Of a stretch of 64,000 nt of DNA, positions 11,435 to 52,736 are shown in pieces. The position numbers and the translations under genes are program-made. Positions within the stretch are counted from its first letter, which is position 1. Each line of letters opens with the position of its first letter. The notes below the pieces were generated by a model. That model worked only from the letters and a program-made list of their open reading frames with translations. It was not told the origin of the DNA and did not search any database. The stretch spans positions 39,149 to 103,148 of the IMG/VR virus record IMGVR_UViG_3300031414_000012; one strand, 5' to 3'. The stretch comes from a virus.

Positions 11435-11442
11435 ACCGCCTC

Positions 11443-14232: not shown

Positions 14233-14244
14233 GGCACATAAAGC

Positions 14245-14274: not shown

Positions 14275-14291
14275 TTTATGCCGTTCTGTCT

Positions 14292-26368: not shown

Positions 26369-26375
26369 TAAACAT

Positions 26376-26402
26376 AGAGGGGTCCAAGTGACCCCTCTTT
26401 TT
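26376..26402 (+). terminator. Intrinsic terminator
   Basis: AGAGGGGTC-CAAGT-GACCCCTCT-TTTT. Confidence 0.75.
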
Positions 26403-26416
26403 ATTCTGGAGTTAAC

Positions 26417-27001: not shown

Positions 27002-27005
27002 TAAC

Positions 27006-29696: not shown

Positions 29697-29743
29697 AGCT
29701 AACCCAAACTTATGAGTTAGGTCTTTGGTTTGGCCCTCCCGTT

Positions 29744-29787
29744 GTCGCTCAGATTGGTGCTGTTCCGGCAGGACGTACCGTGAACGG
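29744..29787 (+). repeat. 44-bp perfect direct repeat, copy 1
   Basis: GTCGCTCAGATTGGTGCTGTTCCGGCAGGACGTACCGTGAACGG, identical to 31437-31480. Confidence 0.95.
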
Positions 29788-30289: not shown

Positions 30290-30291
30290 AA

Positions 30292-30330
30292 TTGAAAAGA
30301 GGGTTGTCCTCTTTTCAAACGAGGACAACT
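30292..30330 (+). promoter_or_regulatory. Mutually exclusive hairpins overlapping the RBS of the fibre gene
   Basis: TTGAAAAGAGG/CCTCTTTTCAA (30292-30318) versus GTTGTCCTC/GAGGACAAC (30303-30311 with 30321-30329). Confidence 0.6.
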
Positions 30331-30332
30331 AA

Positions 30333-35415: not shown

Positions 35416-36283
35416 CTTCTCCCATCATCGGCTCAGTTGCACCCAGCTCTACACGAATGGAGAAGCCTTTGTTGGTGTAACCCACGGCATGGTAAACAGT
35501 AACGTGAGTAGCTACCTGTAAACCGATCGCCTCAGTGTATGAAATGCCGCTTGTGCCTACACCTTCCCCAGTAACAACCTGATCGTTACCGGTGCACATG
35601 GCCAGCTCAGAGATGATCGCACGCAGCGGGTTATCGTATTTGATACGGGCCACGTTGATATACTCTTTAACGTCGTTAGCATCGAATACAATGCCAACGT
35701 CATTAGACACAGACAGGAAGTCGCCATTAGTCGTGGTTGATTCACGGCTGGACAACTCAGGTGCTTTAGGTGAGAGGTTATCGCTGGTAGGAATGAACGG
35801 CACTGTGCTGGACACGCCATCAACCACGGTAGTGTGTTCCATAACGATCTTCTTAGAAGTTTCGTCTTCGACCACACGTTTAGCGTAACACGCTACGTAG
35901 TTTTTGTTGTTCCAGATTTCTTTAACACGCAATGCGTATTTGGCCAGCTCGTCCGCAGACAGCTCATTGCCTTCCTGACGCAGCACAAACGGTTCGTGGT
36001 TAAAACAAGCAGCGTCGGACGCACGGTGTCTGATTGGTGCGGTATAAGAAATACCGTCAGCACCTGCCTGCATGCGGTGACCACCACTACCGATTGCGTA
36101 ATAACGCAGTGAAGGGGTTACCTTAGGCTGGACATCGGCTTGCACACCGAACTTCTCGTTGAGCGTGGTATGTTCCGGGATCGTATATGGCAAACCGCGC
36201 AGAAGGGCAACCTGTAGAGCACTGCCGTACACTGTGCGGGTAATCTGCATAAAGTCCGAAACGTTGTTTTCAGTACTCATCAC
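35360..36283 (-). CDS. Conserved virion (baseplate-associated) protein
   Basis: 307 aa; TTLNEKFGV..YYAIGSGGH motif typical of phiKZ-like structural genes. Confidence 0.6.
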   Translation of the reverse strand: MMSTENNVSDFMQITRTVYGSALQVALLRGLPYTIPEHTTLNEKFGVQADVQPKVTPSLRYYAIGSGGHRMQAGADGISYTAPIRHRASDAACFNHEPFVLRQEGNELSADELAKYALRVKEIWNNKNYVACYAKRVVEDETSKKIVMEHTTVVDGVSSTVPFIPTSDNLSPKAPELSSRESTTTNGDFLSVSNDVGIVFDANDVKEYINVARIKYDNPLRAIISELAMCTGNDQVVTGEGVGTSGISYTEAIGLQVATHVTVYHAVGYTNKGFSIRVELGATEPMMGEGALDVTSKLTATTSNVRE

Positions 36284-36295: not shown

Positions 36296-36856
36296 TTATC
36301 GTACGTCGCTCGGCACAAAGCCAAGAATACGTGTGTTAGTCAATTCATCGGTGATGGGCTTATCAATCACGTCATCTAACGTGAAACCCGTTAAGTCGGT
36401 ATGTGTGATTACCGTACTAATATCGCCTTTACCCAACTTGACTTTAGCAGTAGCACTACCAAAGACTAAGGGGTGTTTATGGAAATCAAAAACAACAATA
36501 GCGTTTTCTTCTGAAAGGATCACCCGGCTTGCGATGACGATCTCTTCAGGTGAACACGGGATGTTGTACGTGGCTAACAGAGTATTACAGATAGAGCCAA
36601 CCACAGTATTCAGGTTGTACGCCGAGGTCTCGATGACGCTGTTGTCGCCCAATTGCCTGGAATCCAAACGATTATACGACGTCGTGGTAGACCTGTCGTA
36701 TTGTTTATCCTCCGGGTTAGCAAAGACTTCGATCCATGTGTTATACCGCCTGTCACCTGAAATGTTAGGCGAGCCAAATGACACACGACTTTTGTCTATG
36801 CGCATGTGGTTATTGCGATTTAACATTTCCACTAAACGTATTTCAGATGGTTTCAT
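36296..36856 (-). CDS. Paralog-array virion protein with two C-terminal peptide motifs
   Basis: LVEMLNRNN...NT...YNRLD; tail ISTVITHTDLTGF / ITDELTNTRILGF. Confidence 0.7.
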   Translation of the reverse strand: MKPSEIRLVEMLNRNNHMRIDKSRVSFGSPNISGDRRYNTWIEVFANPEDKQYDRSTTTSYNRLDSRQLGDNSVIETSAYNLNTVVGSICNTLLATYNIPCSPEEIVIASRVILSEENAIVVFDFHKHPLVFGSATAKVKLGKGDISTVITHTDLTGFTLDDVIDKPITDELTNTRILGFVPSDVR

Positions 36857-37247
36857 CTGGCTTACACTCCAGCTTTATCTTAGCGACAACAACGTAGTCA
36901 TCGATGGTGAGCCAGGGCACGCCATCTACCGTCACAACTTTGAAACAGCCCGGCTCGAACTCGACACGGTTGGCAATCTCTAAGCCATGAACAAACGACG
37001 CAATTGTTCCTTCCGATAAATCTTCCACCCGCGCAGAGTGGTTGATAACCCGGCGGTCATACCGTAAAGTAATGCTCTCACCCTCATTGACCTCATTCGT
37101 TATGGGCGTGACTACGACGGACGTTTTGCCATCATCATCCAGCGTCCTCGGTTCTGAGAAAGAAAAACTGTTCAGTCCAAACTCACGATTAGACTCGCGG
37201 TTTAACTGAGCAATCACACGACAACGCGAACTCAGCAAAAAGTCCAT
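36843..37247 (-). CDS. Divergent paralog-array protein
   Basis: VIAQLNRESN...FSEP...LRYDRR; GAGG RBS. Confidence 0.6.
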   Translation of the reverse strand: MDFLLSSRCRVIAQLNRESNREFGLNSFSFSEPRTLDDDGKTSVVVTPITNEVNEGESITLRYDRRVINHSARVEDLSEGTIASFVHGLEIANRVEFEPGCFKVVTVDGVPWLTIDDYVVVAKIKLECKPDETI

Positions 37248-37307
37248 ATAAACGCCTCGTATCAAAAGAATATAGGTTGAACATAATATTTAACCGCCAC
37301 ACGGCAT

Positions 37308-37331
37308 AAAGAGGTGGAAACCCACCTCTTT
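37308..37331 (-). terminator. Terminator
   Basis: AAAGAGGTGG-AAAC-CCACCTCTTT; the minus strand continues TTTATGCCG. Confidence 0.7.
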
Positions 37332-37334
37332 AGA

Positions 37335-37883
37335 TTAGCCATTGTCTTCAAGTTCAGACTGGTCTTCTTTAAAGCCATCAAGACGAACAATAGTAATCAC
37401 ATCGGGAAGAGGGATTTTCTCATTCATCACGGTAACGGTTAATTGACCATGCAGCACGTAGTTAGGACTCAGATCGATGGTGAGTGTACCAATGATAGCG
37501 TCATCGATAGTACCGGTTTTATCATAGTTCCAGCTACCGATTTCGCCCTCAGCTGAAAGCGGCAGACTCCATTTGGAACTGAGTTCAGCCAGTACCCCAG
37601 CTAACACAGTTTCACCAGATACCTCCACATCGCCGTGTAGGGTGTAGTGGTAGTCAGTGATACCAAATGCGTCGGATGTGCTCAGGCGGTTATATTCGAT
37701 GTCGACATAACCACGATAGCCTTTACCCGCGATTGCGGTGAACCGTGCCTTCGAGTTAGTTCCTGTTCCAACGAAATCGGACGGCGCTCCAACAGTGATG
37801 ACTTTCAGGGTAAAGGCTTTCTTATTTTCGGCATTTACCAGATCGACAAGTGCCTGCTTTGTTGAAGTTACGTTAAGTGCCAT
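37335..37883 (-). CDS. Paralog-array virion protein
   Basis: STKQALVDLVNAEN...GYVDIEYNRL; C-terminal LPDVITIVRLDGF. Confidence 0.75.
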   Translation of the reverse strand: MALNVTSTKQALVDLVNAENKKAFTLKVITVGAPSDFVGTGTNSKARFTAIAGKGYRGYVDIEYNRLSTSDAFGITDYHYTLHGDVEVSGETVLAGVLAELSSKWSLPLSAEGEIGSWNYDKTGTIDDAIIGTLTIDLSPNYVLHGQLTVTVMNEKIPLPDVITIVRLDGFKEDQSELEDNG

Positions 37884-37893
37884 TTACGATTCC

Positions 37894-38856
37894 TTAGGTA
37901 GTAGTCTTCTTCGATGTCACTGTGATGCCACCGGCACTACGAAGAATATAGTTATCGACAATCGATACGCTGGCTGTAAAGTTGTCACCATTATTCGACT
38001 GACTACGCACCTTAAGCTCAGATGCCAAAACAGGCACACCATAAAGCTGTGTTAAAATACCGGCCATATACGCTGGAGTGACTCCATTGTAGAAAGCGGT
38101 GAAGGATGCAAAGTCTTCGAGTTCTACACCATTGGGCGAAAGATCTTCAATATTTAAACGATCATAATTGAAGGACGTTTTATCGCCGTATCCGCCAGAT
38201 TCGAGGCCAGTGATGGTCACGCTGTCGTGAGGGGTAGGTGCACCTGCAATGGCAGATGGCTTCGAGAAGGAAACATCACTGAACGTGAGTGTAGTACTGT
38301 TAACCTGGTTTATTAAAGCAAGGAGTGTTTCTGCTGAAGTTGACGCAGAACTTTTATCCTCACTAGTAAAGTGATCGCTAGTCGACGTTTGTTTGATAAT
38401 TGTCCCGATGGCAATTAATTCTTTTAGTGTGATGTCGACTGCGTTTCTTAGGACGTGGTGTGTATTAAAAACAACCCGAACAACACCATCGTTTCGTGTA
38501 GCGGTATAGGTGCCCGCATCCATCGGCATGCCCCACACATTCTTGATGTGCGTAAGTACCGTACTGATGATATTGCTGTTGCTGTTATTGGCTAACACTA
38601 CACCGACGGTTGGTGTCTCACCAAAGGCAGTCTCAGCATCAAGTCGATGGTAGCCAATATCAACATAGTCACTACCGTCATCCACGACAGTTAACCGGAC
38701 CACGCTATTTGTGGTAGACATCTTAGCCACAAAGTCGCTTGCTGATACATCAGTAGGTGCCGCAACCGATACGTCTGACAAAGTAAGCGACAAGCCATTA
38801 GACTCATTGATTAAGTCTAACAAACTCTGCTTGGCAGTACTCGCTAGATTATACAT
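37894..38856 (-). CDS. Paralog-array protein with a tandem-duplicated domain
   Basis: AKQSLLDLINESN...YHRLD and AETLLALINQVN...YDRLN. Confidence 0.75.
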   Translation of the reverse strand: MYNLASTAKQSLLDLINESNGLSLTLSDVSVAAPTDVSASDFVAKMSTTNSVVRLTVVDDGSDYVDIGYHRLDAETAFGETPTVGVVLANNSNSNIISTVLTHIKNVWGMPMDAGTYTATRNDGVVRVVFNTHHVLRNAVDITLKELIAIGTIIKQTSTSDHFTSEDKSSASTSAETLLALINQVNSTTLTFSDVSFSKPSAIAGAPTPHDSVTITGLESGGYGDKTSFNYDRLNIEDLSPNGVELEDFASFTAFYNGVTPAYMAGILTQLYGVPVLASELKVRSQSNNGDNFTASVSIVDNYILRSAGGITVTSKKTTT

Positions 38857-38881
38857 GAAGTACCTCATACGAAATAAAAAG

Positions 38882-38909
38882 AAACGTAGCCCCATGAGAG
38901 GCTACGTTT
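38882..38909 (-). terminator. Terminator after the 38932-39498 gene
   Basis: AAACGTAGCC...GGCTACGTTT with T-run on the minus strand. Confidence 0.7.
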
Positions 38910-38931
38910 TATGACGTCAGTAGCGGACTAC

Positions 38932-39498
38932 TTAGCCCTGCTGAGCCGGTTTAACGTCGTCGTTGCTAAAGCCAGACAGTTCAGTGGTCTTCACCTGATC
39001 GTCCAGAGTAGCAGCGGCAATGCCAACGGTCAGCGGCAGTGTATCACCCAGCACGTAGTGTTTGCTGAAGTCTACAGTTACTTTCCACGGATAGTCCGCG
39101 TTGTAATCTGCATCGCCTTCAGCCATTTGCGAAACGTTGATCTCGTACGATCCGTCTTCCAGTGGAACGGACTTAATGCCGTCTTCGATCAGACCACTTT
39201 TAACTGCGGCGGCTACGCCTTCCACAGTGGCGGAAGTTCCCGCTGGTGCGCGCCAGCTTGACAGTGCCAGGAGCACTTTAACTGACGGACGGGTATAGGT
39301 AACAGTAACCGAACCAGGCAGTTTGTCTGCATCGGCACCAGTTACCGCGACAGTGGTATTCAGTGCATCGGTAGCGCCTTTGCCATTTGCCGTGGCAGGA
39401 GCAGCCAGAACGAGATCGGAGAGTTTGAAAGTGGTGTTGTTGTCTTTGTTGATGAGATCAACAAGGGCCTGTTTGCTGCTACTAGCAGTAATCGCCAT
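38932..39498 (-). CDS. Paralog-array protein, probable high-copy fibre subunit
   Basis: SSKQALVDLINKDN...GSVTVTYTR; C-terminal LDDQVKTTELSGF; GAGGA RBS, own TATG and terminator; MCP-like codon bias judged by eye. Confidence 0.75.
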   Translation of the reverse strand: MAITASSSKQALVDLINKDNNTTFKLSDLVLAAPATANGKGATDALNTTVAVTGADADKLPGSVTVTYTRPSVKVLLALSSWRAPAGTSATVEGVAAAVKSGLIEDGIKSVPLEDGSYEINVSQMAEGDADYNADYPWKVTVDFSKHYVLGDTLPLTVGIAAATLDDQVKTTELSGFSNDDVKPAQQG

Positions 39499-39557
39499 TT
39501 CTATATCCTCTAATTTACCATGACAACATGTACATGGTGCATCAAGCATAAAATAGG

Positions 39558-42500
39558 TTATTCCCAGGTGATGTTGGGATTGCCTCTAAACACGGTGCTC
39601 ATATCGCTCTGGTCGAGACCGATGCTCGTCAACAGTGTTTTTGCAGTGCCGGTAAGTTTGTTATTCGGCGTGTTGTTACGAGTAGCCATGAGGTTACTGT
39701 ACTGACTGGGTTTCTCACCCGATGGAATGGTGAATACACCCTCCAGCCGATTGATGGAACCAGCAATACCCACATAACCGCCACCGGAAGAGAGTATATA
39801 CGTACCCAACATACCGGTAATTGTACTCGACTTGGTTAATGGGATGCTTGCCTGTTCGAATACAATGTCATCTGCAACCATCTCAAACGCGCAAGTGAAA
39901 TCCACAGTTCCAGACTTAGTCGGAGTGGTAAACCAACCCGCTTCGACCAGGGACAGATTACGTGCTTCGGAGAACACGTAGGTGAGGCTACCAAGTTGCT
40001 CTTTATTCGAGAACAATCCAGCAGGCACTTTAGTGACACCACTGCGTCTGAACATAGAGTCAACGCGATACAATGCGGTGGGAACGCTGAACCAACTGCC
40101 GTAGATCGTGGTCAAAGCTGCGCAACCAGCAAACGTATTCTGCGCATAACTAATAACACTACCCAACACTAGTGGCTCATCAGGTACCACCGCCAGAGAA
40201 CTACAGTTAAGGAACATGTCACTTATATTAGTAACTTTGGTGGAGGGACCCAACGCTCCCGACTCCACCTCTGTTAATGAGAGACAGCCGCTGCACAACC
40301 CGGTAAGTGTAACCAGAGCATTGAACTGTCCGAGATAACTGTTCCTCAGTTTGGTTATGGCTGTTTTACTAAACGCCCCTTCGACTGTGGTGACGCTACT
40401 CGACATAGGCAATAATAATCCATCGGGAATATCAGTGAGTTGGGTTAATCCGTAGAAAATATTGCTGATGTCGGTTACACCGGTGTAACCATCAAAAAGA
40501 CCAGCCGGTAATTCCTTTAAATTGACACACCCATAGAAGAGACTAGCTAGGGATTTAACCGAAGCTTTCTTAGGGAGGTTGGTAAAGAAGTTGGCTGGTA
40601 TCGAGGTCAAGCCAGTTGAGGCAAAGAAACCAGACAGACTCACGACGGACGCACACTTAGACAATAAATTCCCAGGCACCGTTGTGAATTGTCCGCCAGC
40701 CGGGGACCAACTAGGACCACCAAAGAAATAGTCCAGTGCAGTGACTTTGGTCAGCGAGTCTAACGCGCCTTCTTCAATTGTTCCAAAAGGACACCCTAGG
40801 AACGCACGAACAGCGGTCTTGAGATTACCTAGGTCCGCCATAAAGTCAGACGTGAAGGTTACTGGGTTACTGTAACGATAAGATGACCCACACAATTCGA
40901 ATGCGGAGTTAATGTTCGTTAGGCTAACCAACCCCTTCAATATTCCGATTGGGAATGGGCTAACGTTTCTCGTTCCGTAGAAGCAGTACGACAGGTCGGT
41001 TAGTGCAGTACAATTCTCCAGTAGCTTTGACGGGATGGTGGTTAAAGAATTGCAGTACATGAAACCGTAACTTAGCGTCGTGAGCTTAGTCAGTGAAGCA
41101 AAGAGCCGTTCAGGTATCTCCGCAATAGCAGTACCGTTGAATGAGTTACTCAAATCCGTAAGCGCCGTGTTGTGCTTGAACAAGTACTCCGGTATGGACT
41201 GCAACTTACTAGAGCCAAATATGCCATGTCCATTCGTTAGGTTTACACAGTCGTCTAACAATCCCTCAGGTAAAGAAACTAACCCACTACTCCCGAAAGC
41301 AGAAGACAGATTCGCTACGCCACTGCATCCCTTCAATAGACCGGTTGGTATGGCTGTCAGTTGCCCACAACCATAGAACACGCCCGTCATATCCGAACAC
41401 GTCTTACCAGCGTGGCGAATGACATCCACCCCAATGTCCATAAGTGAGGCACAGTTATAACAGAACCCGAACAGGTTAGTTATCTCAGATGTCTCTGGGA
41501 AAGCACCTTCCTCGATCTGGCCCAACTGCGATTGCCTAAACGCGTGTGACCAATCTCCAGAAAGTTTGGCTTTTGCAAATGCACCTGCGCGCACGGTGTT
41601 TACGCGAGAGCTTTGAAACGCGCGGTTAGCGCCAACTATGGTCTGATTGTCGAACAGTCCGTCTGTTATTTCCAGAACGTTGGCGTTGGCGAACAAACCG
41701 CTAATATCAATGGGGACTCGGTTCTTCTGAAATGCATCGGCCTCTATCCAAATGGCGTCGTTGTTCTGTGTTGGGTTAATAAAACCCAACGTCCCGTCTA
41801 CGATACCGTCCTGCGTTACTTCGTAGATTGTGAGAATTGGGAAATCGAGACCATTTGTTAAAGTTGGCTCAGACGTAGTTGTAGTACGCATGACGCCAGT
41901 GCCAAAAGGAATGCTACTCGTTACCGTAATCTCGGTCTCCCCGGCTACCAAGGCTTCAGGAAGGTTAACCACCACTATCCATAGACCAACTACCCACTGT
42001 AAAAACGAGACCTTAGCAACAGTACCATTAATCTTTACATCAAAGATGCTGGGTGTAGGGGTTACAGTGGAGCGGACATAGCCTAAATAAAAACCGGTGT
42101 TAGCGGGTTTAGCCGTCGCTTTGACTGAAAATCTCAGTCGTGCAGATGGTGGCAAAAACACAGTTGCTTTAGTGCTGCCAGAGAAACGAACAGAGGTGGT
42201 TTTAGCGACTAGATCAATTGTTGACCCATTCTCTGCTTCACTTAGATCGAGTGGGAAAGTTAAATCGAAGTCGCTATCTGTGACAACAATCGCGTTGTAT
42301 GTGTGGAAATCCGCAGCGAACGTAGAGAAGTCCGGATACACCCTGGCTGGTATTCGTGGGTTTCCCCACTTGGAGCTGATGTCTGACAACGACACATGCT
42401 GATAGGTGGATGTGACAGCGGCGGTGCCCATTAATGGTACACCGTCCGCCACCGGACTAATCGTCATCTCGCTCGCGCCACCGACAACATCGATATTATC

Positions 42501-42581
42501 GGCAGTGGCGGGTAACGCATAGAGACGCCTTAGTGATGCAGCTACCGCGCCTTTACCATCGTCATCGAGGTTATTAAGCAT
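39558..42581 (-). CDS. Giant LRR (BspA/DUF285-like) virion protein
   Basis: Many ~25-aa repeats FxxCxxLxxIPxxLF after a divergent array-type N-terminal domain. Confidence 0.8.
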   Translation of the reverse strand: MLNNLDDDGKGAVAASLRRLYALPATADNIDVVGGASEMTISPVADGVPLMGTAAVTSTYQHVSLSDISSKWGNPRIPARVYPDFSTFAADFHTYNAIVVTDSDFDLTFPLDLSEAENGSTIDLVAKTTSVRFSGSTKATVFLPPSARLRFSVKATAKPANTGFYLGYVRSTVTPTPSIFDVKINGTVAKVSFLQWVVGLWIVVVNLPEALVAGETEITVTSSIPFGTGVMRTTTTSEPTLTNGLDFPILTIYEVTQDGIVDGTLGFINPTQNNDAIWIEADAFQKNRVPIDISGLFANANVLEITDGLFDNQTIVGANRAFQSSRVNTVRAGAFAKAKLSGDWSHAFRQSQLGQIEEGAFPETSEITNLFGFCYNCASLMDIGVDVIRHAGKTCSDMTGVFYGCGQLTAIPTGLLKGCSGVANLSSAFGSSGLVSLPEGLLDDCVNLTNGHGIFGSSKLQSIPEYLFKHNTALTDLSNSFNGTAIAEIPERLFASLTKLTTLSYGFMYCNSLTTIPSKLLENCTALTDLSYCFYGTRNVSPFPIGILKGLVSLTNINSAFELCGSSYRYSNPVTFTSDFMADLGNLKTAVRAFLGCPFGTIEEGALDSLTKVTALDYFFGGPSWSPAGGQFTTVPGNLLSKCASVVSLSGFFASTGLTSIPANFFTNLPKKASVKSLASLFYGCVNLKELPAGLFDGYTGVTDISNIFYGLTQLTDIPDGLLLPMSSSVTTVEGAFSKTAITKLRNSYLGQFNALVTLTGLCSGCLSLTEVESGALGPSTKVTNISDMFLNCSSLAVVPDEPLVLGSVISYAQNTFAGCAALTTIYGSWFSVPTALYRVDSMFRRSGVTKVPAGLFSNKEQLGSLTYVFSEARNLSLVEAGWFTTPTKSGTVDFTCAFEMVADDIVFEQASIPLTKSSTITGMLGTYILSSGGGYVGIAGSINRLEGVFTIPSGEKPSQYSNLMATRNNTPNNKLTGTAKTLLTSIGLDQSDMSTVFRGNPNITWE

Positions 42582-42590
42582 GGATAATCC

Positions 42591-45263
42591 TTAGGATGTA
42601 AGTGAGCAAAGTAAGTATGTGTCTGGACTATTCCAATCGGCGGTGGTGATTGACCGGTCGAACACCAGACATGCTACCAAACGAACCTCTGGTCTGACGT
42701 ACGCTGTTGGGAAACCAATAGAGCCATACGCCCTCGACATTAAGCTAACTGTCTTAACGGTGGTAGGCAGTGTAAGACCCAACGTAAGAAAAACTCTAGA
42801 CAACCAGACCCGCATAGCGCCCGTTATCTCAACGTTGTCCAATGTGCCGAAACTGTTGGAGAGCGTATCGCGAGGTATATTAACATAGTAACTCGCAAAC
42901 AACGGTACAACGGCGTGTCCGGCCGGCTTGGTGGTTTTATCCATGGTAAAGACATCCAGTGCGTTGCCATCCGCACGGCTCAAATTGATAGCGGTTGTCC
43001 ACCACGGGCTTTTGACGGCCTCGTAGTCATCAAGCAGAAAACACTGCTCGACGAAATTGAGACGTATTCGGTTGGCATTAGGTACAACCGAGTTGGTCAT
43101 CGCGTTCCACAGTTCCATACAACTGCCGGTTAACCAAATAACCCCGTTACAGAAGTTAGACGCATCAAACTTTTGTCCAGCCTGGTTAGTCATCCCAATG
43201 ACAATCTTCTTCAGCAAGGCTGTGGTACTTACTACCAATTTTCCCGCGTTAAGTAAGAAACCATTTATCGAGAACACCATTCCATTAATTTGCACTGCGT
43301 TATCTTCAATTGTTAACAAGTTGGGACAGTTAGCAAAGAAGTTAACAAACGAACCGCCGCCGTCCGTAATCCCAGTAGTAACGTCTATCGCACCCTTAGA
43401 CACCTTGACTAATCTAGAACAGCCGGAGAAAACGCCGTCTGCTTTAATGAGCGTAGCGTTGAGTGTAATAAATACGTTTGCTGGAACTGAGTCAATGGCC
43501 GTACCTGCAAAGGCATACTCGATGGCACGAAGTGTGGTGTGTGATGAAAATAAACCCGCTTCGATTGAAACCAACCCAGAGTTCTGAAAAACCCCACTGG
43601 CGTCCCTAATACCAGCCCCTGGAAAGAAATCGCCAGGTATAGCAAAAGGTTGCGTAACGCCCCGGAATGCCTGGGCGACGTTAGTTAATTTGGTGGTGTA
43701 TTTAAAAAGGTCTGACGGAATTGACGTCAGTGAAATGCAACCATCAAAGATGTTATTAACTACGCTAAGCGACGCACTATTAATAAAAAGCGCTTCCGGG
43801 ATAGAAGATAGCGCCGTGTTGTTAGCCATCAGGGAATCGGCATAGACTATTTTAGAGTTAGCATCGAAGAACCCACTAGGGATGGAGGCGATTGAGGTTC
43901 GCATGAACAACTCTCTAACCTGAATCAAGCTGGGGTTGTTCGACAAAAAGTCTGCGGCAATGTCGGTGACGCTCACACAACCTTTGAAGACCCCATTTGC
44001 CACAGTTAGTTGCGAAAGATCCTTAAAGAAACCATCTGGAATAACCTTTAACTTAGTGCAGCCGTAGAACACATTGGTGAGTGTCGTCAGACCGGGGGAG
44101 TCGTTTAGCAGGTTGGTGGGTACTGTCTCGACATTAAGGCACGACATAAACATCGAAGATAACGTTTTGAGGCTTGGGAACGCAGCAAGTAATTTTTCTG
44201 GTATAACACTCACCCCTGAGTTCTGGAATAGCTGAGTTGAGCTGATGACGTTTGCACCAATTGGTGTAAATAGATCGGCTGGTATTTCCCTAAGGGACAG
44301 CGTGTCCATAAAAACCATGTCTAGCGTGGTGTCCTGCAAATCCAAATTCTTAAACAGTGTAGAGCTTACACTTTCTATCCCGGTGGCGCGCAGCAGCCCA
44401 CTAATGCGGTACACCGAACTATCGCGCATAAATAACACGCTTGGGAGTGTCTTAAGTCCGCTACAGCCCCAAAACAGATTAGATATGTTGGTGCTTAACC
44501 CGCCAGCTGCGTGAATACACTCCTCATCGATTGTAGTTAAATTCACACAATCTTTAAAGAGCTGGGTGTACGTACCGCTATACACACGCAATAACCGGAG
44601 ACGCGTTGGGCCAAGAAACTTAAACCCGTTCGAAACCAGACCAAAGTTCTTGATCTCGATCTTGTGATTACCCGCTATGATCGTATATGGTAAAGGCTGG
44701 TACACCCCATCAACATAAAGAGAACCATACCCGATAACTGCCGGCGTTACCGACACATTACCGGGTAGAGAAACATCCATTACTACCTGGTTAATCCACG
44801 GGTGGGTTAGCGTTACACGCAAGGTACCATAATAGTAGAAGCTAGTCGACTTAGCCGTAAGCTCCACAGTGACATCGTAACGCGGGTCTGGCGTGATGAG
44901 CACCGCTTCGAAATCATCAGTCGACAATGAAACACCCAGGTACTCCGACAGCATGGAGAGCAACTCAGCTTGACCAGATGGTGTTTTGTCGTGTAGTAAT
45001 ACATCGGCATTGAAGACTTTGATGTCATTCTGCCAATCGAAGACGTAGGTTTTGTTAGAGAGGTCCATGCGGTCAATATTGAACGTACTGGAACCTTTCA
45101 TCTTGTCCGAACCCTGGGACGATGGTTTGATCGTTACCTGAATAGTTTTACCGGAGACCACCTTCTGGTCGGAGAGGACAAAGTCCTCCCATACCAGTTC
45201 AAGGCCAGTCTTCGCCATTAACTGATTCACGATGTTTTGTTTGTAATCATCGTAATTCATCAC
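42591..45263 (-). CDS. Giant LRR (BspA/DUF285-like) virion protein
   Basis: KQNIVNQL...FNIDRMDLS N-terminal domain; repeats such as FYGCTKLKVIPDGFF and FDGCISLTSIPSDLF. Confidence 0.8.
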   Translation of the reverse strand: MMNYDDYKQNIVNQLMAKTGLELVWEDFVLSDQKVVSGKTIQVTIKPSSQGSDKMKGSSTFNIDRMDLSNKTYVFDWQNDIKVFNADVLLHDKTPSGQAELLSMLSEYLGVSLSTDDFEAVLITPDPRYDVTVELTAKSTSFYYYGTLRVTLTHPWINQVVMDVSLPGNVSVTPAVIGYGSLYVDGVYQPLPYTIIAGNHKIEIKNFGLVSNGFKFLGPTRLRLLRVYSGTYTQLFKDCVNLTTIDEECIHAAGGLSTNISNLFWGCSGLKTLPSVLFMRDSSVYRISGLLRATGIESVSSTLFKNLDLQDTTLDMVFMDTLSLREIPADLFTPIGANVISSTQLFQNSGVSVIPEKLLAAFPSLKTLSSMFMSCLNVETVPTNLLNDSPGLTTLTNVFYGCTKLKVIPDGFFKDLSQLTVANGVFKGCVSVTDIAADFLSNNPSLIQVRELFMRTSIASIPSGFFDANSKIVYADSLMANNTALSSIPEALFINSASLSVVNNIFDGCISLTSIPSDLFKYTTKLTNVAQAFRGVTQPFAIPGDFFPGAGIRDASGVFQNSGLVSIEAGLFSSHTTLRAIEYAFAGTAIDSVPANVFITLNATLIKADGVFSGCSRLVKVSKGAIDVTTGITDGGGSFVNFFANCPNLLTIEDNAVQINGMVFSINGFLLNAGKLVVSTTALLKKIVIGMTNQAGQKFDASNFCNGVIWLTGSCMELWNAMTNSVVPNANRIRLNFVEQCFLLDDYEAVKSPWWTTAINLSRADGNALDVFTMDKTTKPAGHAVVPLFASYYVNIPRDTLSNSFGTLDNVEITGAMRVWLSRVFLTLGLTLPTTVKTVSLMSRAYGSIGFPTAYVRPEVRLVACLVFDRSITTADWNSPDTYLLCSLTS

Positions 45264-45271
45264 GAAGTTCC

Positions 45272-46066
45272 TTAGTCGTTAAAGTGCGCCCATATATTTA
45301 ACTTAGGCACGATAAGCAGGCTACTGAAACCAGCCCTACCGCCTGCCGTTTTCACGTTTGCCTCGCCAGTGTAAAGTACACCGGTAATGCCAGACGCCCA
45401 CTGGTTTGTTCTACCACCCATCAAGGCGTTCCAGAGGTTCTGTCTCAGCAACGGAGTGGACGCAGCCACACCCTGACGTAACAGTGAGCCACACCCGGTG
45501 TAATCGTAGTTATATGTCAGTGTAAAGTTAGAGTCCACCTTAGGCAACTCAGTGTACGCACCGGAGTTCCAACCGGGTTCGATAATGTCACCAAGGTCAG
45601 GTTTACCGCGCGTGAAGTAGACATGGCACTTACCAGTAATCCACGGTGAGTCCTCTTCAGCTTCTATCTCGATGTAGCTGTTGTTAGAAGACGTTGGGAT
45701 ACTTGCGGCCTTGATATCACTTGCTTCCATCGGGATGCCAAATTCATTGCTGACCCATGCTGCGAAGTCTTTGGTATTGTTGCTGGAGGTTAACCAAACG
45801 ACATCAACGCCCTTAAACAGCAGACTTAAATCAAGTCGGTTATAAAAGACGTCGACATATTTACCGTAAGACTCGCCGAATGAGTTCTGTATACCAGTAG
45901 CAACAAGTGTCGCCTGGGTGTTCGACTTCTCCGCACCAGTAACACCCGAGATTGCTCTCGGGTTAGTCACGTTGTACATCTTATCAGTCAGTTCGAAAGG
46001 CAAGCTATTGACGGCGTTGATGGCGCTAGTCAGAGTTGCCTTGAACCCTTTGCTATAAAACGACAT
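45272..46066 (-). CDS. Paralog-array virion protein
   Basis: TLTSAINAVN...NTQATL...VFYNRLDL; C-terminal YNYDYT domain. Confidence 0.75.
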   Translation of the reverse strand: MSFYSKGFKATLTSAINAVNSLPFELTDKMYNVTNPRAISGVTGAEKSNTQATLVATGIQNSFGESYGKYVDVFYNRLDLSLLFKGVDVVWLTSSNNTKDFAAWVSNEFGIPMEASDIKAASIPTSSNNSYIEIEAEEDSPWITGKCHVYFTRGKPDLGDIIEPGWNSGAYTELPKVDSNFTLTYNYDYTGCGSLLRQGVAASTPLLRQNLWNALMGGRTNQWASGITGVLYTGEANVKTAGGRAGFSSLLIVPKLNIWAHFND

Positions 46067-46075
46067 AGCTTATCC

Positions 46076-48751
46076 TCAAGTGAGATTTTTAGCACCATTG
46101 AGTGCGTTGGAAACAACCGTGGCATTGACCTGACTTGCATCACTCACGCCCCACAATGCCTTCACCAGCGCGTCCTTGCTACCAGTCAACCAGGTGGCAT
46201 TGAGTAAGAACAGGTTTGTGTTTGTAGTGCTATCGGAGAGAGGGATCTTGTTACCATCAGTCACCCCAATGGTCAAAAGGAACTGATCGACCGTCAGATC
46301 GGCTAACTTAGTGTTGCCGAACATTGTCGAAATCGTACCCGTCAGAGGTATGTTCGCCTTTACTTGACCGATGTTCAGGTTAGACAGTGTCAAGTTATAG
46401 AACAACCCACCGACGTTCGGTTTGTTCTTATAGACCTCGGGATGAAACATGTCCGTTACATCACCACGCAACTCAGCTCGTTCAAACAGACTATAAGCTA
46501 AACTCAACGACGCCATCTTACTAAACAGACCTTTTGGTATCGTCAGTGCCAGAGAGTACCGGAAGAGATACGTGATGTCCGTCACACTAACCAGTGGATC
46601 AAACAAACCCTCTGGGATGACAAATTGCTTCTTCAGGTTGCTGAACATTTCCCTGGCCGACGTCACAGCACCGAATGGGGCGAATATGCCGCTAGGTAAA
46701 GTGGTAAGATTTCGAGCACCGAAGAACATTGTTGCGATGTTTGTGCATTTGGTCATTCGCTGGAATATTTTCTCAGGGAACTCCGTAGCCGCCGTATTTT
46801 CAAACAAGCGGTTAGCGCTGGTGACGTTATCGGCATATTCCAGTAAGTCCTCAGGGAACGTGGATGCACCACAAGAACCAAACATGTCATACAGCACTTT
46901 CGCGCTTTTGGCTTTAGGTAAGACACTACCTTTAAATTCAATGTTTGATGTGCTGACAAATACGTTACTGAAATCGCTGACCAAACTCTGGTTAGCAAAG
47001 ATTCCGGCTGGGATGGACAATGGATTATTCACTCCGCTTGCACCACGGAAACACATTACTAGGTTAGTAACGTTCGTCAGCGTGTCGAAAAGTCCAGGTG
47101 GGCAATACCCATTGCGGAACTTTGCTCCGTAGAATAGCTGCCCTATGTTAGTTACGCCTGTCAGGTCTTTAAAGAGATCTGCGTTCCCATCTGTAAGTTG
47201 GAATGTGGCATTGTAGAAAGCATTGTAGAGTGAGGTTAACTTACTCTGCCCAGCAAACAGGTTAGAGAAATCGCCGACAACGGTAGTGTCACTAAAGAGC
47301 GAACTAGCGTCAGACAACAACGCACCCGAAAATACATCCTTATCGATCGATTGGATAACTGCTTTACTGAGCATGCTCGATACAGATACGGTTGCACCAT
47401 TAGGTAAGATGCCTTTCCCGACCGAGTCGACCTTAACGCCCTGACACGCGTTAGTTAGGGTTAGGTTATTAGAAAAACCAGCAAACGCACCATCCTCAAT
47501 ATTAGGGATATTCGAATATGCGAGAACAGAAAGCGCGTTCGTCACCGACGGGTGTCTCTTAAAGAGACGACTCGGCCAATAGCTAGCTTTAACATAGCTA
47601 AACATAGTCCCCACTTGCTGAAGACTCGTCATGTCATCCAGTAAGCCGTCGGGGAGATGGCAACCATTCGTAGTCGAGTAACCAACCATATTAAACGCAG
47701 CAGTCGCTACGGCTACATTCTTCATCCCTTTAAACAGACCCAATGGGATGTTAGTTAGTTTGGAACAACCGTCAAAGAGTCCTTGGATCGTCGAGGTTGA
47801 GTGTTCAGTAACTTGACTCTCTGTCTCACCAAAATCCGTTAGGTTAGTGCATTGGGAAAACGTACGATCTAACGAAGAAAACCCGCCAGCGTGATTGGCG
47901 AACCCGGTGCCCACAGTGGTGAGATTACGACATTGGAAGAACATCGTGGCGGCATTAATCGGCTGCGTGTTACCAAGGAACACGTCGTCGCCAATTTCAA
48001 TCAAGCTGCTGTTATACATGAACAGCGAGCCTGAAACCACCCTTGACCCATATCCCACAACACGATCAATCCGAACGATTGGTAGACTCGTGCCCACCGT
48101 ACCCAGTGAAGGGGTGGCGTAGTAAAAATCCCACACGCCAGTTTCGACTGTTACAGTAAAGTAACCCTTCTCGTCGATAGGGTGGAGGACGCCATTTATT
48201 ACCAAATAGGCATATGCACTATCGGGGAATATGGCTGATGACGTTGCGCCGTATACGCGATAACGTGCTCCCTTGGTGACTGATACCGTACCGCGTAGCA
48301 TATACGCACTGCGGCTCTTCAAAGTAAACGTGAGTTGTCCTTTGTATTTCGGTGAGTCGTTTGCACACTTGAGTACAAAGGTCTCCCCATGATCACCTTT
48401 AAGATCAATCTGCTGGTCAACGATGTCACTCGTCTCCAGATTCAACTTACAATTGCGGTTTATCTCTTCTAAGGCGTCGGATACCTTAGCCAGCGGGCGC
48501 GCTGGTAAGACGGCGGATAACACACCCACCAAGCTAGAAAGCTCTACGCGATTGTAGTTAAAGTCGGCCTGACCTTCCACGGTATTTCCACTTATGTTTG
48601 TGGCCTTCCCACGAACTTGTGAATTACGTGTGGCACTTGCACTCGACTGCACATCACTAAATTCGATCTGTGCAGGTACAATGCGAGTACCATTTACATC
48701 GTTGATGGCATCAACAAATGCCTGCTTTGTTACTGAATCGCGTAGGCTCAT
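46076..48751 (-). CDS. Giant LRR (BspA/DUF285-like) virion protein
   Basis: TKQAFVDAINDVN...FNYNRVEL N-terminal domain; repeats such as FDGCSKLTNIPLGLF and FFGARNLTTLPSGIF. Confidence 0.8.
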   Translation of the reverse strand: MSLRDSVTKQAFVDAINDVNGTRIVPAQIEFSDVQSSASATRNSQVRGKATNISGNTVEGQADFNYNRVELSSLVGVLSAVLPARPLAKVSDALEEINRNCKLNLETSDIVDQQIDLKGDHGETFVLKCANDSPKYKGQLTFTLKSRSAYMLRGTVSVTKGARYRVYGATSSAIFPDSAYAYLVINGVLHPIDEKGYFTVTVETGVWDFYYATPSLGTVGTSLPIVRIDRVVGYGSRVVSGSLFMYNSSLIEIGDDVFLGNTQPINAATMFFQCRNLTTVGTGFANHAGGFSSLDRTFSQCTNLTDFGETESQVTEHSTSTIQGLFDGCSKLTNIPLGLFKGMKNVAVATAAFNMVGYSTTNGCHLPDGLLDDMTSLQQVGTMFSYVKASYWPSRLFKRHPSVTNALSVLAYSNIPNIEDGAFAGFSNNLTLTNACQGVKVDSVGKGILPNGATVSVSSMLSKAVIQSIDKDVFSGALLSDASSLFSDTTVVGDFSNLFAGQSKLTSLYNAFYNATFQLTDGNADLFKDLTGVTNIGQLFYGAKFRNGYCPPGLFDTLTNVTNLVMCFRGASGVNNPLSIPAGIFANQSLVSDFSNVFVSTSNIEFKGSVLPKAKSAKVLYDMFGSCGASTFPEDLLEYADNVTSANRLFENTAATEFPEKIFQRMTKCTNIATMFFGARNLTTLPSGIFAPFGAVTSAREMFSNLKKQFVIPEGLFDPLVSVTDITYLFRYSLALTIPKGLFSKMASLSLAYSLFERAELRGDVTDMFHPEVYKNKPNVGGLFYNLTLSNLNIGQVKANIPLTGTISTMFGNTKLADLTVDQFLLTIGVTDGNKIPLSDSTTNTNLFLLNATWLTGSKDALVKALWGVSDASQVNATVVSNALNGAKNLT

Positions 48752-48753
48752 AA

Positions 48754-49593
48754 CTACTCCGGAATTGTGTACTTCATTGACAAATAGTCAACTTTGCCTG
48801 GTATTTTGAAAAGGACTAACCCAACACCGCTGTTGTTAGCTGAGGCCGTTGTAACGATCGATTGGTTCGTTACGGAACCAAGATCTATACCGAACTCTGC
48901 CAGCATCACCTTACCGAGTATAATCCGGTTGGCTGCTTCATTTGTACTTCCCTTGCGGATGCTATCGAGGTCTGTAGCGTAGAAACTAAAGTCAACATCC
49001 TTAGTTAACCGTAGTCCGTTTGCAGGGAGTGTCTTATCTACGCCGTTTTCGGTGGCATACACGAAATCACTTACTGCATCAGCATCGACAAAGATGTTCA
49101 AGTCTTTATCGAGTGTGGATAGATCGACTGGCGGTACAACAACTTCTATATCAAAACTGCCGATGTAGTTTAAAGATGTTGCCTTAGCCTTGACCGTAAT
49201 CTTCTCCAGAGTATCGTCAGTGAGGTCTACGTCATAAACGTCCTCTGGGTAGAACTGTACGCCGCAAAGCTCTGAGAACGTGTCTAAGAACTCATACAGG
49301 GTACTTGCCTTGCTCGTCTTGCCGATCTCGTATTCAAACAGAATGCCTTTGAATAACAGACCAAGGTCGAGGCGATTATACGTGAGCGATACTTGACCCA
49401 CGTAGATATCCTTAAACCCTTCGACGTCATTCCCAGTACCGGATAGCACCACTTGGGTGTTTTCTGAACCAGACACAACTAAAGGCGCGCTGAGCGACAC
49501 GGATTCCCCATTAAGGGGAACCACGATGCCGGTTTGCTCGCCAGTTGCGTAGGCCAGTAGGGTGTCATTTCGAAATGCTTCTACAATGGCCAT
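48754..49593 (-). CDS. Paralog-array virion protein
   Basis: NTQVVL...GQVSLTYNRLDL...SLNYIGSF. Confidence 0.75.
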   Translation of the reverse strand: MAIVEAFRNDTLLAYATGEQTGIVVPLNGESVSLSAPLVVSGSENTQVVLSGTGNDVEGFKDIYVGQVSLTYNRLDLGLLFKGILFEYEIGKTSKASTLYEFLDTFSELCGVQFYPEDVYDVDLTDDTLEKITVKAKATSLNYIGSFDIEVVVPPVDLSTLDKDLNIFVDADAVSDFVYATENGVDKTLPANGLRLTKDVDFSFYATDLDSIRKGSTNEAANRIILGKVMLAEFGIDLGSVTNQSIVTTASANNSGVGLVLFKIPGKVDYLSMKYTIPE

Positions 49594-49601
49594 AATGCAC
49601 C

Positions 49602-50447
49602 TTATGCGTTGTAGTGGAACAGTAAACGACCCGCCATATTGCTACAGAGCTTATCCAACTGTACGACCAACAGTCGCGTGAAGCCACGACGGGTACTGTA
49701 GGTGTCAACAACCGGGCCGTTATAAATGGCCTCAGCGTTATACAGGTTAAAGTCGGCAGCCTGAGAACGCATTACCCAAACGTCAGGTTTTGCGTACTTA
49801 TTCAGCAACTGAAGCACACCATCCAGCGGCGTATTGAAGTCGACGTTAACCAGGATACTAGCGTCATCAGTAAAGTCCTTACTGTATACGTACAGATCGC
49901 CCTGTATCAGCGTAGACTGGCCTGTCGGGTAGCGAAGCACCGGTAGCACTCGATTGAGTACAGCGTCGTCCAGATTGATTGGGAGGCGCTCAACGATGAC
50001 CTGGAAAGATCCCTGCCAGGCTGGGTTATCGTGTTTGAATACGATATCTACCGTAACGGGTAATTTACTCAGGTCAACAAGACCATCCTCAATGTCTTCA
50101 GAAGACAACGCTAACCCGTAAAGGCTATTGATATCTTCCAGCAGGTCGGTAATGTTTTTCTGGCTCTTCGGACGAATAACGGTGGCTACTGATCCGAAGA
50201 TATTAGCCGCGTCTAACCGTCGATAGGTAATGACGGTATTCTCCTTGAAGTCACCGCCAAACACCGCCAGTAAGTCAGCCATGGTATCGCGGATGGCTGG
50301 CGTACCTTCGATTAAGGTAGGGTCTGGATTTGCTCGCGGGTTCGACACGATAACGTCAGAACGCGAAAGCATCAGATTGTTATCGCGATTGATTAACGCA
50401 ATGACCATCTCTTGGGACGGTAGATTACGTGGGATATCAGTATACAT
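49602..50447 (-). CDS. Paralog-array virion protein (phiKZ gp130-like position)
   Basis: SQEMVIALINRDN...ITYRRLD...WQGSF; VYSKDFT C-terminal domain. Confidence 0.75.
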   Translation of the reverse strand: MYTDIPRNLPSQEMVIALINRDNNLMLSRSDVIVSNPRANPDPTLIEGTPAIRDTMADLLAVFGGDFKENTVITYRRLDAANIFGSVATVIRPKSQKNITDLLEDINSLYGLALSSEDIEDGLVDLSKLPVTVDIVFKHDNPAWQGSFQVIVERLPINLDDAVLNRVLPVLRYPTGQSTLIQGDLYVYSKDFTDDASILVNVDFNTPLDGVLQLLNKYAKPDVWVMRSQAADFNLYNAEAIYNGPVVDTYSTRRGFTRLLVVQLDKLCSNMAGRLLFHYNA

Positions 50448-50462
50448 TCGTTACCTCAGGAA

Positions 50463-52736
50463 TCAGCGAACATCTTTCGGTCTAAAACCGATAAGACTCT
50501 TAGTGGTGACCTCGTCAGAAATTTCTTTCTCACTCAGATCTCCCAGTCCGTTCAAATCGTTCGTGGTCAGCGTCTTGCCGTTTTCGTTGGTGTAGGTCCA
50601 ATCAAGTAAACCATTAAGATCGGTATTACCCAACACAGCGTCCAACTCAACCATCTTCGCCCTGCGGATATAAACCGTAGGGATTTGTCCGCGTATGCGA
50701 ATCTCGCCACGTCCGGTCAAGTTGAAGTCGAGATCAACACTATCCTTTATAGCAGCGTTAGACTGAACTTCGGCAGACCATTGCGTGCCCTGCTCGGTGA
50801 GGCCGTAGTCTATCGCCGCTTCAGATTTCACACCCCAGTTCTTAACGTGTGCTGGCATCCATGGGTGTCGGATATTACCATAGCCGTAAAGTCCAATATC
50901 ACCCAAACGTATAACACGCCAGTCTGCCACAATGGCAGGGTTCTGGTTGATTGTTTGAATAGCATGGATGGTGTATGAACTTAACTGAAGGAACAGACGC
51001 AGCATTGCGGCGTGTATCTCAGCCAGTGACTTACTATAGAACAAGTCACTTCCCGTTGCCTGGGTAAAGATAGCTGTAGCCAACTGCATGTACGTATCTG
51101 CATCCCAACCATCTAACTCCCAGTTACGCTCACGGAAGTAGTCGCTCAACAACGTACCTTTCGGTGCGAAATAGCAGCGTTTAGTTTGGAACAACTTACG
51201 ACAGACAGCTTCCATCTGACCACGAGCACGGTAGTGTTCACGGAGTGAGTAAAGTTCACGGTGCGCTAGTTGCGTTTCACGAATCTCTACGCATTTCAAA
51301 TAGAACCCTTCCGTCGATACCAGCTTTGGTAACGCTGGCATTGCACGCATGGCAACTGTAATCAGGTCATCACTGACAAGATACGGCTCAGCTACACCAC
51401 GGAGTTCGTCAAACGTCGGACGATCTAAGCGGACCACGTCCCATGCCTCTGGAATAGGCACTTGCGTTAAGGTTACGCCGAATGCTCTATTCAGACAGTA
51501 GTTGAAAGCAACCCATGCGTCTTTAACAGACATAACCATGTTCAATCCAGAACGCGGATTTTGTACGGTTATCATCGAGGTGAAGACGCCTTCACTACCA
51601 AACAGTATCCAATGGTTATAGAGCGTATCCACCAAACGTACCGGTGTCAGCAATGAAATATCAACAACCTCGGACTCAAGGACTTTGGTTGGAATCTCGC
51701 CCATCAACCCGCGACTAAACTTGAAGTTGATATCGGCATCTGCCGTTTCAAGGTTGTCCGTGTTGTCTCGTGCTAATGGTTGCTCTTTTTCAAGGATTTC
51801 ACGAACTGTTTTGTTGTCGTGACGAATCTCCTGCTCCTGTTGGAAGTTCAACGGTGTGAAGGAAAGACTGGCACGGTTATAAAGCGTTGTCAGCAAGTCT
51901 TCGTCACTAGCCACCATGTTATACTGACCAATCGGGAATCCACGTTTTGTCATGACGTTTTTGATAAGGACGGTTTTGGTTTCGTCTTTACCGTTGTTAT
52001 GATCAATCCAACGAATATCACGATATAACCACATAGCTTGTTCGCGAGTCAGGAACTCACGGTAATCATCTAAATAGTTATGAGAAGCCAGGTAAGCCCA
52101 AAGGTGAAAACTATGGACGTAGTTGGTCCTACAGTTCCTTTGGCGTATTTCCATGATGGCACTAGGAATTGCAAAATGCAACTGTCGAAGTGCTGATGCC
52201 AGATACAGATCTTCTACCAGCGAGAAGTCGTTATGCAAATAACGTCTCACGAAGGAATCAATGAATTTCTGTAACTCTGGGATTAAGTTCTCTTCCCACG
52301 GCTCAACGAGGTCGTCGTCGTAATAAAGGATGCTGTGATCTGGGGCACTAATTGCCGTCTGTAAATCAACAGGCGTGATAATGCCGCGAATCAGAGCACG
52401 CTGCTCGGGATATCGTCTGACCAGTTCCTTATAGTAGCTACTGCCCAGGGTGTATTCACGCGCCGTGGTACTGTGCTTCAATAAGTTTTCTTTGGTGAAG
52501 TCAATCTCTTCTAACGTATCCAAAGAACGAACTGTCATCATTGTGTTCTCAGGATGATACTCACCTGCAAGGTTGAGGTAATACATCCAGGACTCGGGGC
52601 GTGTCGTATCGACATCACGCCGATATTCCATCAGTCCTCTATTTAGTGCCTCTGCCGAACCTGCGGACTTAATGACCAGCGTCTTACCCAGCTGGAGCGT
52701 ATTAGCCCGATAGATATCGTATAAGTTACTGGACAT
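50463..52736 (-). CDS. Conserved virion/baseplate protein (phiKZ gp128-like) with repeated C-terminal peptide motif
   Basis: WMYYLNLAGEYH, SLDTLEEIDFTKENL; tail LDAVLGNTDLNGL / TTNDLNGL / ISDEVTTKSLIGF. Confidence 0.7.
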   Translation of the reverse strand: MSSNLYDIYRANTLQLGKTLVIKSAGSAEALNRGLMEYRRDVDTTRPESWMYYLNLAGEYHPENTMMTVRSLDTLEEIDFTKENLLKHSTTAREYTLGSSYYKELVRRYPEQRALIRGIITPVDLQTAISAPDHSILYYDDDLVEPWEENLIPELQKFIDSFVRRYLHNDFSLVEDLYLASALRQLHFAIPSAIMEIRQRNCRTNYVHSFHLWAYLASHNYLDDYREFLTREQAMWLYRDIRWIDHNNGKDETKTVLIKNVMTKRGFPIGQYNMVASDEDLLTTLYNRASLSFTPLNFQQEQEIRHDNKTVREILEKEQPLARDNTDNLETADADINFKFSRGLMGEIPTKVLESEVVDISLLTPVRLVDTLYNHWILFGSEGVFTSMITVQNPRSGLNMVMSVKDAWVAFNYCLNRAFGVTLTQVPIPEAWDVVRLDRPTFDELRGVAEPYLVSDDLITVAMRAMPALPKLVSTEGFYLKCVEIRETQLAHRELYSLREHYRARGQMEAVCRKLFQTKRCYFAPKGTLLSDYFRERNWELDGWDADTYMQLATAIFTQATGSDLFYSKSLAEIHAAMLRLFLQLSSYTIHAIQTINQNPAIVADWRVIRLGDIGLYGYGNIRHPWMPAHVKNWGVKSEAAIDYGLTEQGTQWSAEVQSNAAIKDSVDLDFNLTGRGEIRIRGQIPTVYIRRAKMVELDAVLGNTDLNGLLDWTYTNENGKTLTTNDLNGLGDLSEKEISDEVTTKSLIGFRPKDVR

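Follow-up and report, generated by a model that had tools for sequence, protein, structure and literature searches.

Gene content of the array

We analysed a tandem gene array in a 64,000-nucleotide stretch of virus DNA (the window), which corresponds to bases 39149-103148 of the 103-kb IMG/VR record IMGVR_UViG_3300031414_000012; the completeness of the record is estimated at 38%. The array comprises 11 adjacent genes, named here by their lowest window coordinate, that share an N-terminal domain (N-domain) belonging to Pfam DUF7941 (PF25613; phrog_1037, "virion structural protein"). A 19-residue motif recurs among the encoded proteins and, in weaker form and without the domain, in a neighbouring baseplate protein. 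The features are listed below with E-values from Pfam and from a family hidden Markov model (HMM), which was built from 125 independent DUF7941 representatives and searched against the 1072 open reading frames (ORFs) of the contig. Motif scores are in bits, and models are from AlphaFold 2 (AF2) with confidence given as the predicted local distance difference test (pLDDT).

36296-36856, minus strand: short DUF7941 protein of 186 amino acids (aa) ending in two motifs (28.6 and 30.3 bits), a candidate bivalent hub.
36843-37265, minus strand: small protein of 140 aa with a marginal N-domain match (family HMM E 1.6e-4) and no motif.
37335-37883, minus strand: short DUF7941 protein of 182 aa with one terminal motif (Pfam E 2e-17; motif 25.6 bits).
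37894-38895, minus strand: two DUF7941 N-domains joined by a degenerate linker, without a terminal motif (family HMM aa 14-127, E 1e-12, and aa 186-311, E 1.5e-14).
38882-38909, minus strand: terminator-like hairpin with a 12-bp stem and a T run directly 3' of 38932, the sole strong one inside the array.
38932-39498, minus strand: short DUF7941 protein of 188 aa, N-domain plus one terminal motif, a candidate major filament subunit (Pfam E 9.5e-15; motif 31.9 bits; AF2 pLDDT 92).
39558-42581, minus strand: BspA-type leucine-rich-repeat (LRR) protein of 1007 aa with a truncated, weakly matching N-domain (LRR_5 E 6.7e-8; family HMM E 1.8e-3).
42591-45263, minus strand: DUF7941 N-domain plus repeat region, 890 aa, without the motif (Pfam E 7.3e-8; family HMM E 1.6e-14).
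45272-46066, minus strand: DUF7941 protein of 264 aa (Pfam E 4.9e-26).
46076-48751, minus strand: DUF7941 N-domain plus LRR region, 891 aa, without the motif, a proposed distal adhesin (Pfam DUF7941 E 3e-18 at aa 6-148, and DUF285; family HMM E 5e-28).
48754-49593, minus strand: DUF7941 protein of 279 aa with an internal linker (Pfam E 5e-22; family HMM E 1.7e-35).
49602-50447, minus strand: full-length DUF7941 protein (N-domain, linker, C-terminal domain) of 281 aa, similar to gp127 of phage phiKZ (Pfam E 2.7e-57, profile positions 5-276; Protein Data Bank (PDB) 9xqd, PHIKZ127, E 3.3e-11).

The shared N-terminal domain

All 11 genes matched the family HMM, nine of them at E <= 1.6e-14, and 9/11 passed the Pfam gathering cut-off (36296, 37335, 37894 with two stretches, 38932, 42591, 45272, 46076, 48754 and 49602), for a total of 12 domains in the array. 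The match in 39558 spanned the second half of the domain only (profile positions 63-145), and 36843 had no Pfam or PHROG match. The start of 38932 was corrected to 39498, giving the 188 aa listed above; its orthologs have 180-189 aa. The family comprises 3598 representative proteins at E <= 0.001, and members of the tandem form (N-domain-linker)n are frequent in it, with the next domain starting 5-12 residues after each linker.

The array is one of two in the record. Nine further DUF7941 genes lie upstream of the window at record bases 7044-14304, bringing the record to 20 matches in 103 kb. Erwinia phage pEa_SNUABM_54 has 19 DUF7941 matches in two corresponding arrays.

The 19-residue linker motif

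The motif reads roughly x-L-s-D-x-I-t-x-T-x-L-s-G-F-t-x-d-D-V. We built a clade motif HMM from 26 distinct instances, taken from the three short paralogs 36296, 37335 and 38932 and their orthologs; terminal copies scored 25.6-31.9 bits, with one each in 37335 and 38932 and two in 36296. Among the 125 family representatives, a linker with the consensus L....t.t.L.Gl.YP lies at profile positions ~154-169, directly before the C-terminal domain (C-domain). By sequence comparison, then, the peptide is no add-on: it is the linker that joins the N- and C-terminal halves of DUF7941 and is conserved there, and the full-length paralogs therefore hold it internally, where the preliminary description of this DNA had not seen it. 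In the clade of this phage the terminal version is a clean 19-mer with a G-F-x-x-x-D-V ending. These three short proteins end after the linker, like gp23 of phage Goslar, and the ~280-aa paralogs run on into the C-domain, like Goslar gp22 and phiKZ gp127.

Motif number was not constant among relatives of 36296. Five orthologs retained two copies and one had four; the latter (P0175, 229 aa) carries its four motifs in tandem ~21 residues apart, so that copy number varies between close relatives. In 37894 a degenerate motif lies between the two domains and none at the C-terminal end. The three LRR proteins matched neither the family-wide linker HMM nor the clade motif HMM. The C-terminus of the neighbouring gp139-like spoke protein (35360) was considered as a further motif carrier on a faint likeness by eye and was rejected, since it was absent from the HMM matches and not conserved in homologs.

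Most of the anatomy that had been read by eye from the translations held up. The preliminary description counted about 11 adjacent genes with a common N-terminal domain and two domains in 37894, as Pfam (nine genes) and the family HMM (all 11) now find, both with two separate stretches in 37894. Its motif counts, one in 37335 and 38932 and two in 36296, agree with the motif HMM. The LRR proteins, described as having the domain and no motif, do so, with the domain of 39558 marginal and both motif HMMs silent.

Motif copies without a domain

Two features outside the array carry the motif in the absence of the domain.

50463-52736, minus strand: baseplate wedge protein of 757 aa, homolog of phiKZ gp128 and Goslar gp35 (11lx_Bh E 5e-139; 9xqs_C, PHIKZ128, E 7e-114; phrog_3222).
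50466-50645, minus strand: C-terminal tail of this wedge protein with three linker-like copies (aa 698-710, 723-731 and 739-757), detected with the motif HMM and a shuffle test; proposed anchor peptides.
60858-60914, minus strand: 19-codon frame directly after the UGA stop of the capsid gene, holding a full motif copy (clade motif HMM 34.0 bits, E 2.8e-9).

The wedge protein had no DUF7941 domain in the Pfam search, and its alignment to solved wedge structures stops at about residue 636, with the motif tail lying beyond. With the clade motif HMM its last 90 residues reached 17.8 bits, and the best of 500 composition-preserving shuffles gave 9.8 bits (0/500), and the four closest wedge relatives likewise exceeded all of their shuffles. 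In the second copy the L-x-G-L core residues L728, G730 and L731 were invariant in nine wedge relatives, down to 37% identity, and the last copy ends in the G-F-x-x-x-D-V of the terminal 36296 copy. When whole ORFs were searched with the family-wide linker HMM, the best wedge-tail copy reached 2.9 bits, which is not significant alone; the significance of the tail comes only from the tail-versus-shuffle tests. The earlier reading of up to three motifs in a gp128-like protein without an obvious domain was thus correct, with the copies weak singly and the tail as a whole significant against shuffles.

Repeats of the L(D/N)GL type were found in the wedge tails of FBKp24 (~4-6), SA002 (6), Goslar gp35 (3), LucasX (~9), PCH45 (4) and P0009 (3), and PhiPA3 and RVTF4 had no such repeats. 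A linker HMM built without wedge proteins scored 6/12 wedge tails above all 200 shuffles and two more above all but one. The P0009 tail, whose repeats have the full L-x-G-L-x-Y-P, reached E 1.4e-7 with this HMM, and the Goslar tail did not exceed its shuffles. PhiPA3 and RVTF4 also had the fewest DUF7941 matches, three each vs 4-19 in the others, in what is a small and non-independent sample. The largest number of repeats was seen in the Xanthomonas phage LucasX, whose wedge gene (L010:4001-6745) has about nine tandem L-(D/N)-(D/E/R)-L-x-Y-P repeats in a genome with 19 DUF7941 matches.

Of the record's 3019 six-frame peptides, none matched the clade motif HMM better than the one after the capsid stop, which lay outside the training set.

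Structural models

The AF2 model of 38932 (pLDDT 92) shows an alpha/beta N-domain over residues 1-160 and, after it, the motif, modelled at pLDDT 77-90 as short helices and coil. For 36296 the domain was modelled confidently, the first motif at pLDDT 58-67 and the second below 50. DSSP assigned two long helices within the domain in both models, e.g., H8-20 and H92-107 in 38932. The 38932 N-domain matched that of phiKZ gp127 (9xqd_0) with a Foldseek probability of 1.0 and a VIA Z-score of 8.9 (root-mean-square deviation 3.5 Å over 139 residues). Beyond phiKZ gp127, the listed Foldseek and VIA matches were all weak and partial (Z <= 4.4), and no known fold could be assigned to the domain. A complex of the wedge tail (aa 685-757) and the 38932 N-domain (aa 1-160) was also predicted from a 65-row alignment; the runs scored 0.45, 0.29 and 0.12, and their median of 0.29, short of the mark of 0.32, speaks neither for binding nor against it.

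Comparison with known systems

The closest published system is the one described for phage Goslar (bioRxiv 10.64898/2026.04.21.720040, April 2026). That preprint describes DUF7941 as a chimallivirus-specific family and lists ten fiber cloud proteins (gp22, gp23, gp31, gp33, gp34, gp86, gp91-93 and gp161), of which gp22 and gp23 were found at ~580 and ~2140 copies per virion; its evidence includes virion mass spectrometry. In AlphaFold 3 dimers each N-domain is predicted to receive the linker, and the C-domain, of the preceding protomer; purified gp22 formed filaments by negative stain; and a gp126-gp127 heterodimer was fitted into unexplained phiKZ density. The same work reports DUF7941 fusions to LRR, carbohydrate-binding and glycosidase domains and proposes a host-seeking "fiber cloud" anchored at the peripheral baseplate.

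Our array shares with Goslar the Pfam family, the three architectures (an N-domain with its linker; these two followed by a C-domain; an N-domain fused to LRR or carbohydrate-binding parts) and the position of the DUF7941 genes beside the wedge and spoke genes. It differs in scale, with at least 20 domains in the 103-kb fragment compared with 10 Goslar proteins, and in holding two-motif, two-domain and three LRR members within one array. The preprint does not mention a sequence motif, repeats in the gp35 wedge tail or a capsid-linked copy. What our sequence analysis would add, then, is wedge-tail motifs in several chimallivirus lineages, multi-motif hubs and the capsid-linked copy.

In phiKZ, gp126 and gp127 are placed in the outer peripheral baseplate (PDB 9xqd; Nat Commun 2026, PMC13250141). 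Gene 49602 is a gp127 sequence homolog adjoining the gp128 homolog, and the modelled 38932 N-domain superposes on that of gp127. Unlike our phage, phiKZ has about three family members only, and the wedge tails of its clade are without the motif. A large tandem expansion resembling ours is paralog family B of phage SPN3US, with 20 members (Thomas et al. 2016; Ali et al. 2017, PMC5694885), whose gp144, gp145 and gp160 matched DUF7941, identifying family B as DUF7941. Abundance within family B varies widely, and one short member is highly abundant. Family B members were detected in a tailless mutant and consequently assigned to the head (PMC5694885); the source papers propose no assembly mechanism.

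The preliminary description had suggested that the domain binds the peptide of the preceding subunit as in donor-strand pilus assembly. The first half of this claim agrees, by homology, with the published Goslar head-to-tail model, and the core of the socket-and-peptide idea is sound and already published for that phage. The pilus comparison fails in its particulars. Chaperone-usher pili are likewise polymers in which each subunit donates a short peptide to a site on the adjacent one, a likeness by analogy only. Their pilins have an incomplete, all-beta immunoglobulin (Ig) fold and donate an N-terminal extension as a beta-strand, whereas the AF2 models here show a mixed alpha/beta N-domain and a C-terminal peptide of helix and coil; there is no chaperone or usher here and no homology. 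The phiKZ gp127 N-domain was the only clear structural match (next VIA Z 4.4), and the modelled alpha/beta domain is not of the pilin Ig type; no pilin appeared among the listed Foldseek and VIA matches, although absence from that list does not exclude similarity. On these models the array may bear a loose working likeness to donor-strand polymerisation, yet it is not a member of that class.

A proposed model for filament assembly

The analysis shows directly that the proteins belong to the family, how their domains and motifs are arranged and conserved, which genes surround them, and that the motif copies are statistically real. From this we propose that the array encodes DUF7941 virion proteins whose linker-on-N-domain docking would build filaments with chain, end, hub and anchor roles, a reading to which we give a probability of roughly 0.7. 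The docking model is carried over to the array because of its homology to Goslar gp22/gp23 and phiKZ gp126/gp127. In outline, the globular N-domain is mostly followed by the 19-residue linker and then by nothing or by the C-domain, with a large LRR region replacing the linker in the LRR proteins. The linker of one protomer, with its C-domain if present, would dock on the N-domain of the next and so give flexible head-to-tail filaments around the particle. The phiKZ fit has the same polarity, with gp127 holding the gp126 N-domain by means of its linker and C-domain. The major chain subunit would be 38932, which resembles Goslar gp23 and SPN3US gp160 in its short length and has the strong terminator-like hairpin directly after it; the hairpin suggests that the gene is expressed separately or at a higher level. 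LRR proteins, with a domain and no motif, would end chains and carry the host-binding part, and 36296 (two motifs) and 37894 (two domains) would add valency; these cap and branch roles are consistent with the domain and motif counts. Motif-only carriers would attach the chains to the particle, through the wedge tail and possibly through a read-through tail of the capsid protein.

That the peptide would bind in trans is argued indirectly, from architecture. Motifs stand without a domain in cis in the wedge tail and in the frame after the capsid stop, and motifs outnumber domains both in 36296 and in its four-motif ortholog. Conversely, the LRR proteins have domains without a motif, and tandem (N-domain-linker)n proteins are common in the family.

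Several points weigh against the filament model. Two of its supposed members, 36843 and 39558, are marginal family matches (E 1.6e-4 and 1.8e-3), the three wedge-tail copies in the last 60 residues scored just 5.1-5.7 bits singly with the clade motif HMM, and the motif is missing from phiKZ-clade wedge tails. The sole resolved DUF7941 protein, phiKZ gp127, sits at the end of the outer gp139 band and not on gp128. The Goslar docking mechanism itself rests mainly on structure prediction, and our phage is known only from a metagenome, with filament formation proposed by homology. Because the AF2 monomer places the 38932 motif confidently, this motif may also pack in cis on its own domain. Such packing is central to a different reading, in which DUF7941 proteins are low-copy peripheral baseplate parts, the linker is an intramolecular connector packed against the domain of its own protein, the short paralogs arose as truncated duplicates and extended filaments are not made. 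The single gp127 copy resolved per star lobe in phiKZ and the embedding of the array among baseplate genes would suit it too. We nevertheless judge it improbable, given that filaments of Goslar gp22 assemble in vitro, that a Goslar virion contains gp22 and gp23 in hundreds to thousands of copies, that motif copies occur without a domain in cis in the wedge tail and after the capsid stop, and that 36296 has more motifs than domains, both modelled at low confidence.

A narrower alternative concerns the wedge tail, whose repeats could dock another baseplate or fibre component, for instance the tail fibres or the gp139-like spoke, their likeness to the linker being convergence on a short hydrophobic L-x-G-L/F core. 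The repeats do vary widely between phages (LDGLW, LDDLxYP, LNGL), the copies are weak singly at 5-6 bits, the Goslar tail fails to exceed its shuffles, and phiKZ gp128 contacts gp139 dimer A. Convergence is harder to square with the linker HMM built without wedge proteins, with which eight of the 12 tails exceeded all or all but one of their shuffles and the P0009 tail was significant, or with the ending that the last wedge copy has in common with terminal 36296. We regard this alternative as doubtful, and on sequence evidence the wedge tail is likely a baseplate attachment site for DUF7941 chains.

Within the filament model, we entertain as a tentative possibility that the system, instead of being six linear filaments, forms a branched network with multiple anchors in which a single 19-residue peptide does the wiring, taken jointly with its site, hub and cap parts. 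Six wedge tails with three peptides each would provide 18 baseplate start sites, and rare read-through capsid subunits would provide start sites on the head. Chains would branch at multi-motif hubs (36296, one ortholog of which has as many as four motifs) and stop at the motif-less LRR proteins, so that domain and peptide copy numbers would determine how the fibre cloud is shaped.

For nucleus-forming jumbo phages, the fibre-cloud model was put forward recently and is based mainly on structure prediction. Its basic idea being published, the array adds detail: it reduces the model to a 19-residue peptide and a ~150-residue domain that are testable pairwise in vitro, and it points to possible filament attachment (wedge tail, capsid read-through tail), branching and adhesin ends. 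If correct, the filament model would account for the retention of up to 20 paralogs in such phages. A head attachment site would explain SPN3US family B on tailless heads, and with it the presence of DUF7941 proteins on SPN3US heads vs their baseplate placement in phiKZ and Goslar.

Genomic setting

The array is flanked by the wedge gene on one side and on the other by a spoke gene.

35360-36283, minus strand: DUF7208 protein, homolog of the baseplate spoke phiKZ gp139 / Goslar gp32 (Pfam E 1.2e-93; PDB 9xpg_A, PHIKZ139, E 5e-54).

The phiKZ structural atlas identifies gp128 as a subunit of the baseplate wedge, from which the gp139 spoke extends to the peripheral baseplate. A cluster of tail-fibre-type genes (phrog_2163, phrog_13857 and phrog_3573) lies upstream of the array at 23723-31769 on the plus strand. 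With the gp128-like wedge and gp139-like spoke as neighbours and these tail-fibre genes nearby, the array is within a combined baseplate and fibre module of a chimallivirus-type (giant phiKZ-like) jumbo phage. A scan for sigma-70 promoters found sites no more numerous than in shuffled sequence; such a scan is uninformative for a phage having its own RNA polymerase.

Megablast of the array against phage genomes gave just one DNA-level match, 834 bp in pEa_SNUABM_54, so relatives were sought via proteins. At the protein level, gp35-gp47 of this phage, all annotated as hypothetical, are collinear gene for gene with the region. The small gene 36843-37265, which overlaps the start of 36296-36856 by 14 bases (36843-36856), is kept there as gp45. 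The array upstream of the window consists of eight full-length DUF7941 genes and a 104-aa ORF that has the C-terminal domain only and begins exactly at the linker Y-P; pEa_SNUABM_54 carries its counterpart at 115-122 kb.

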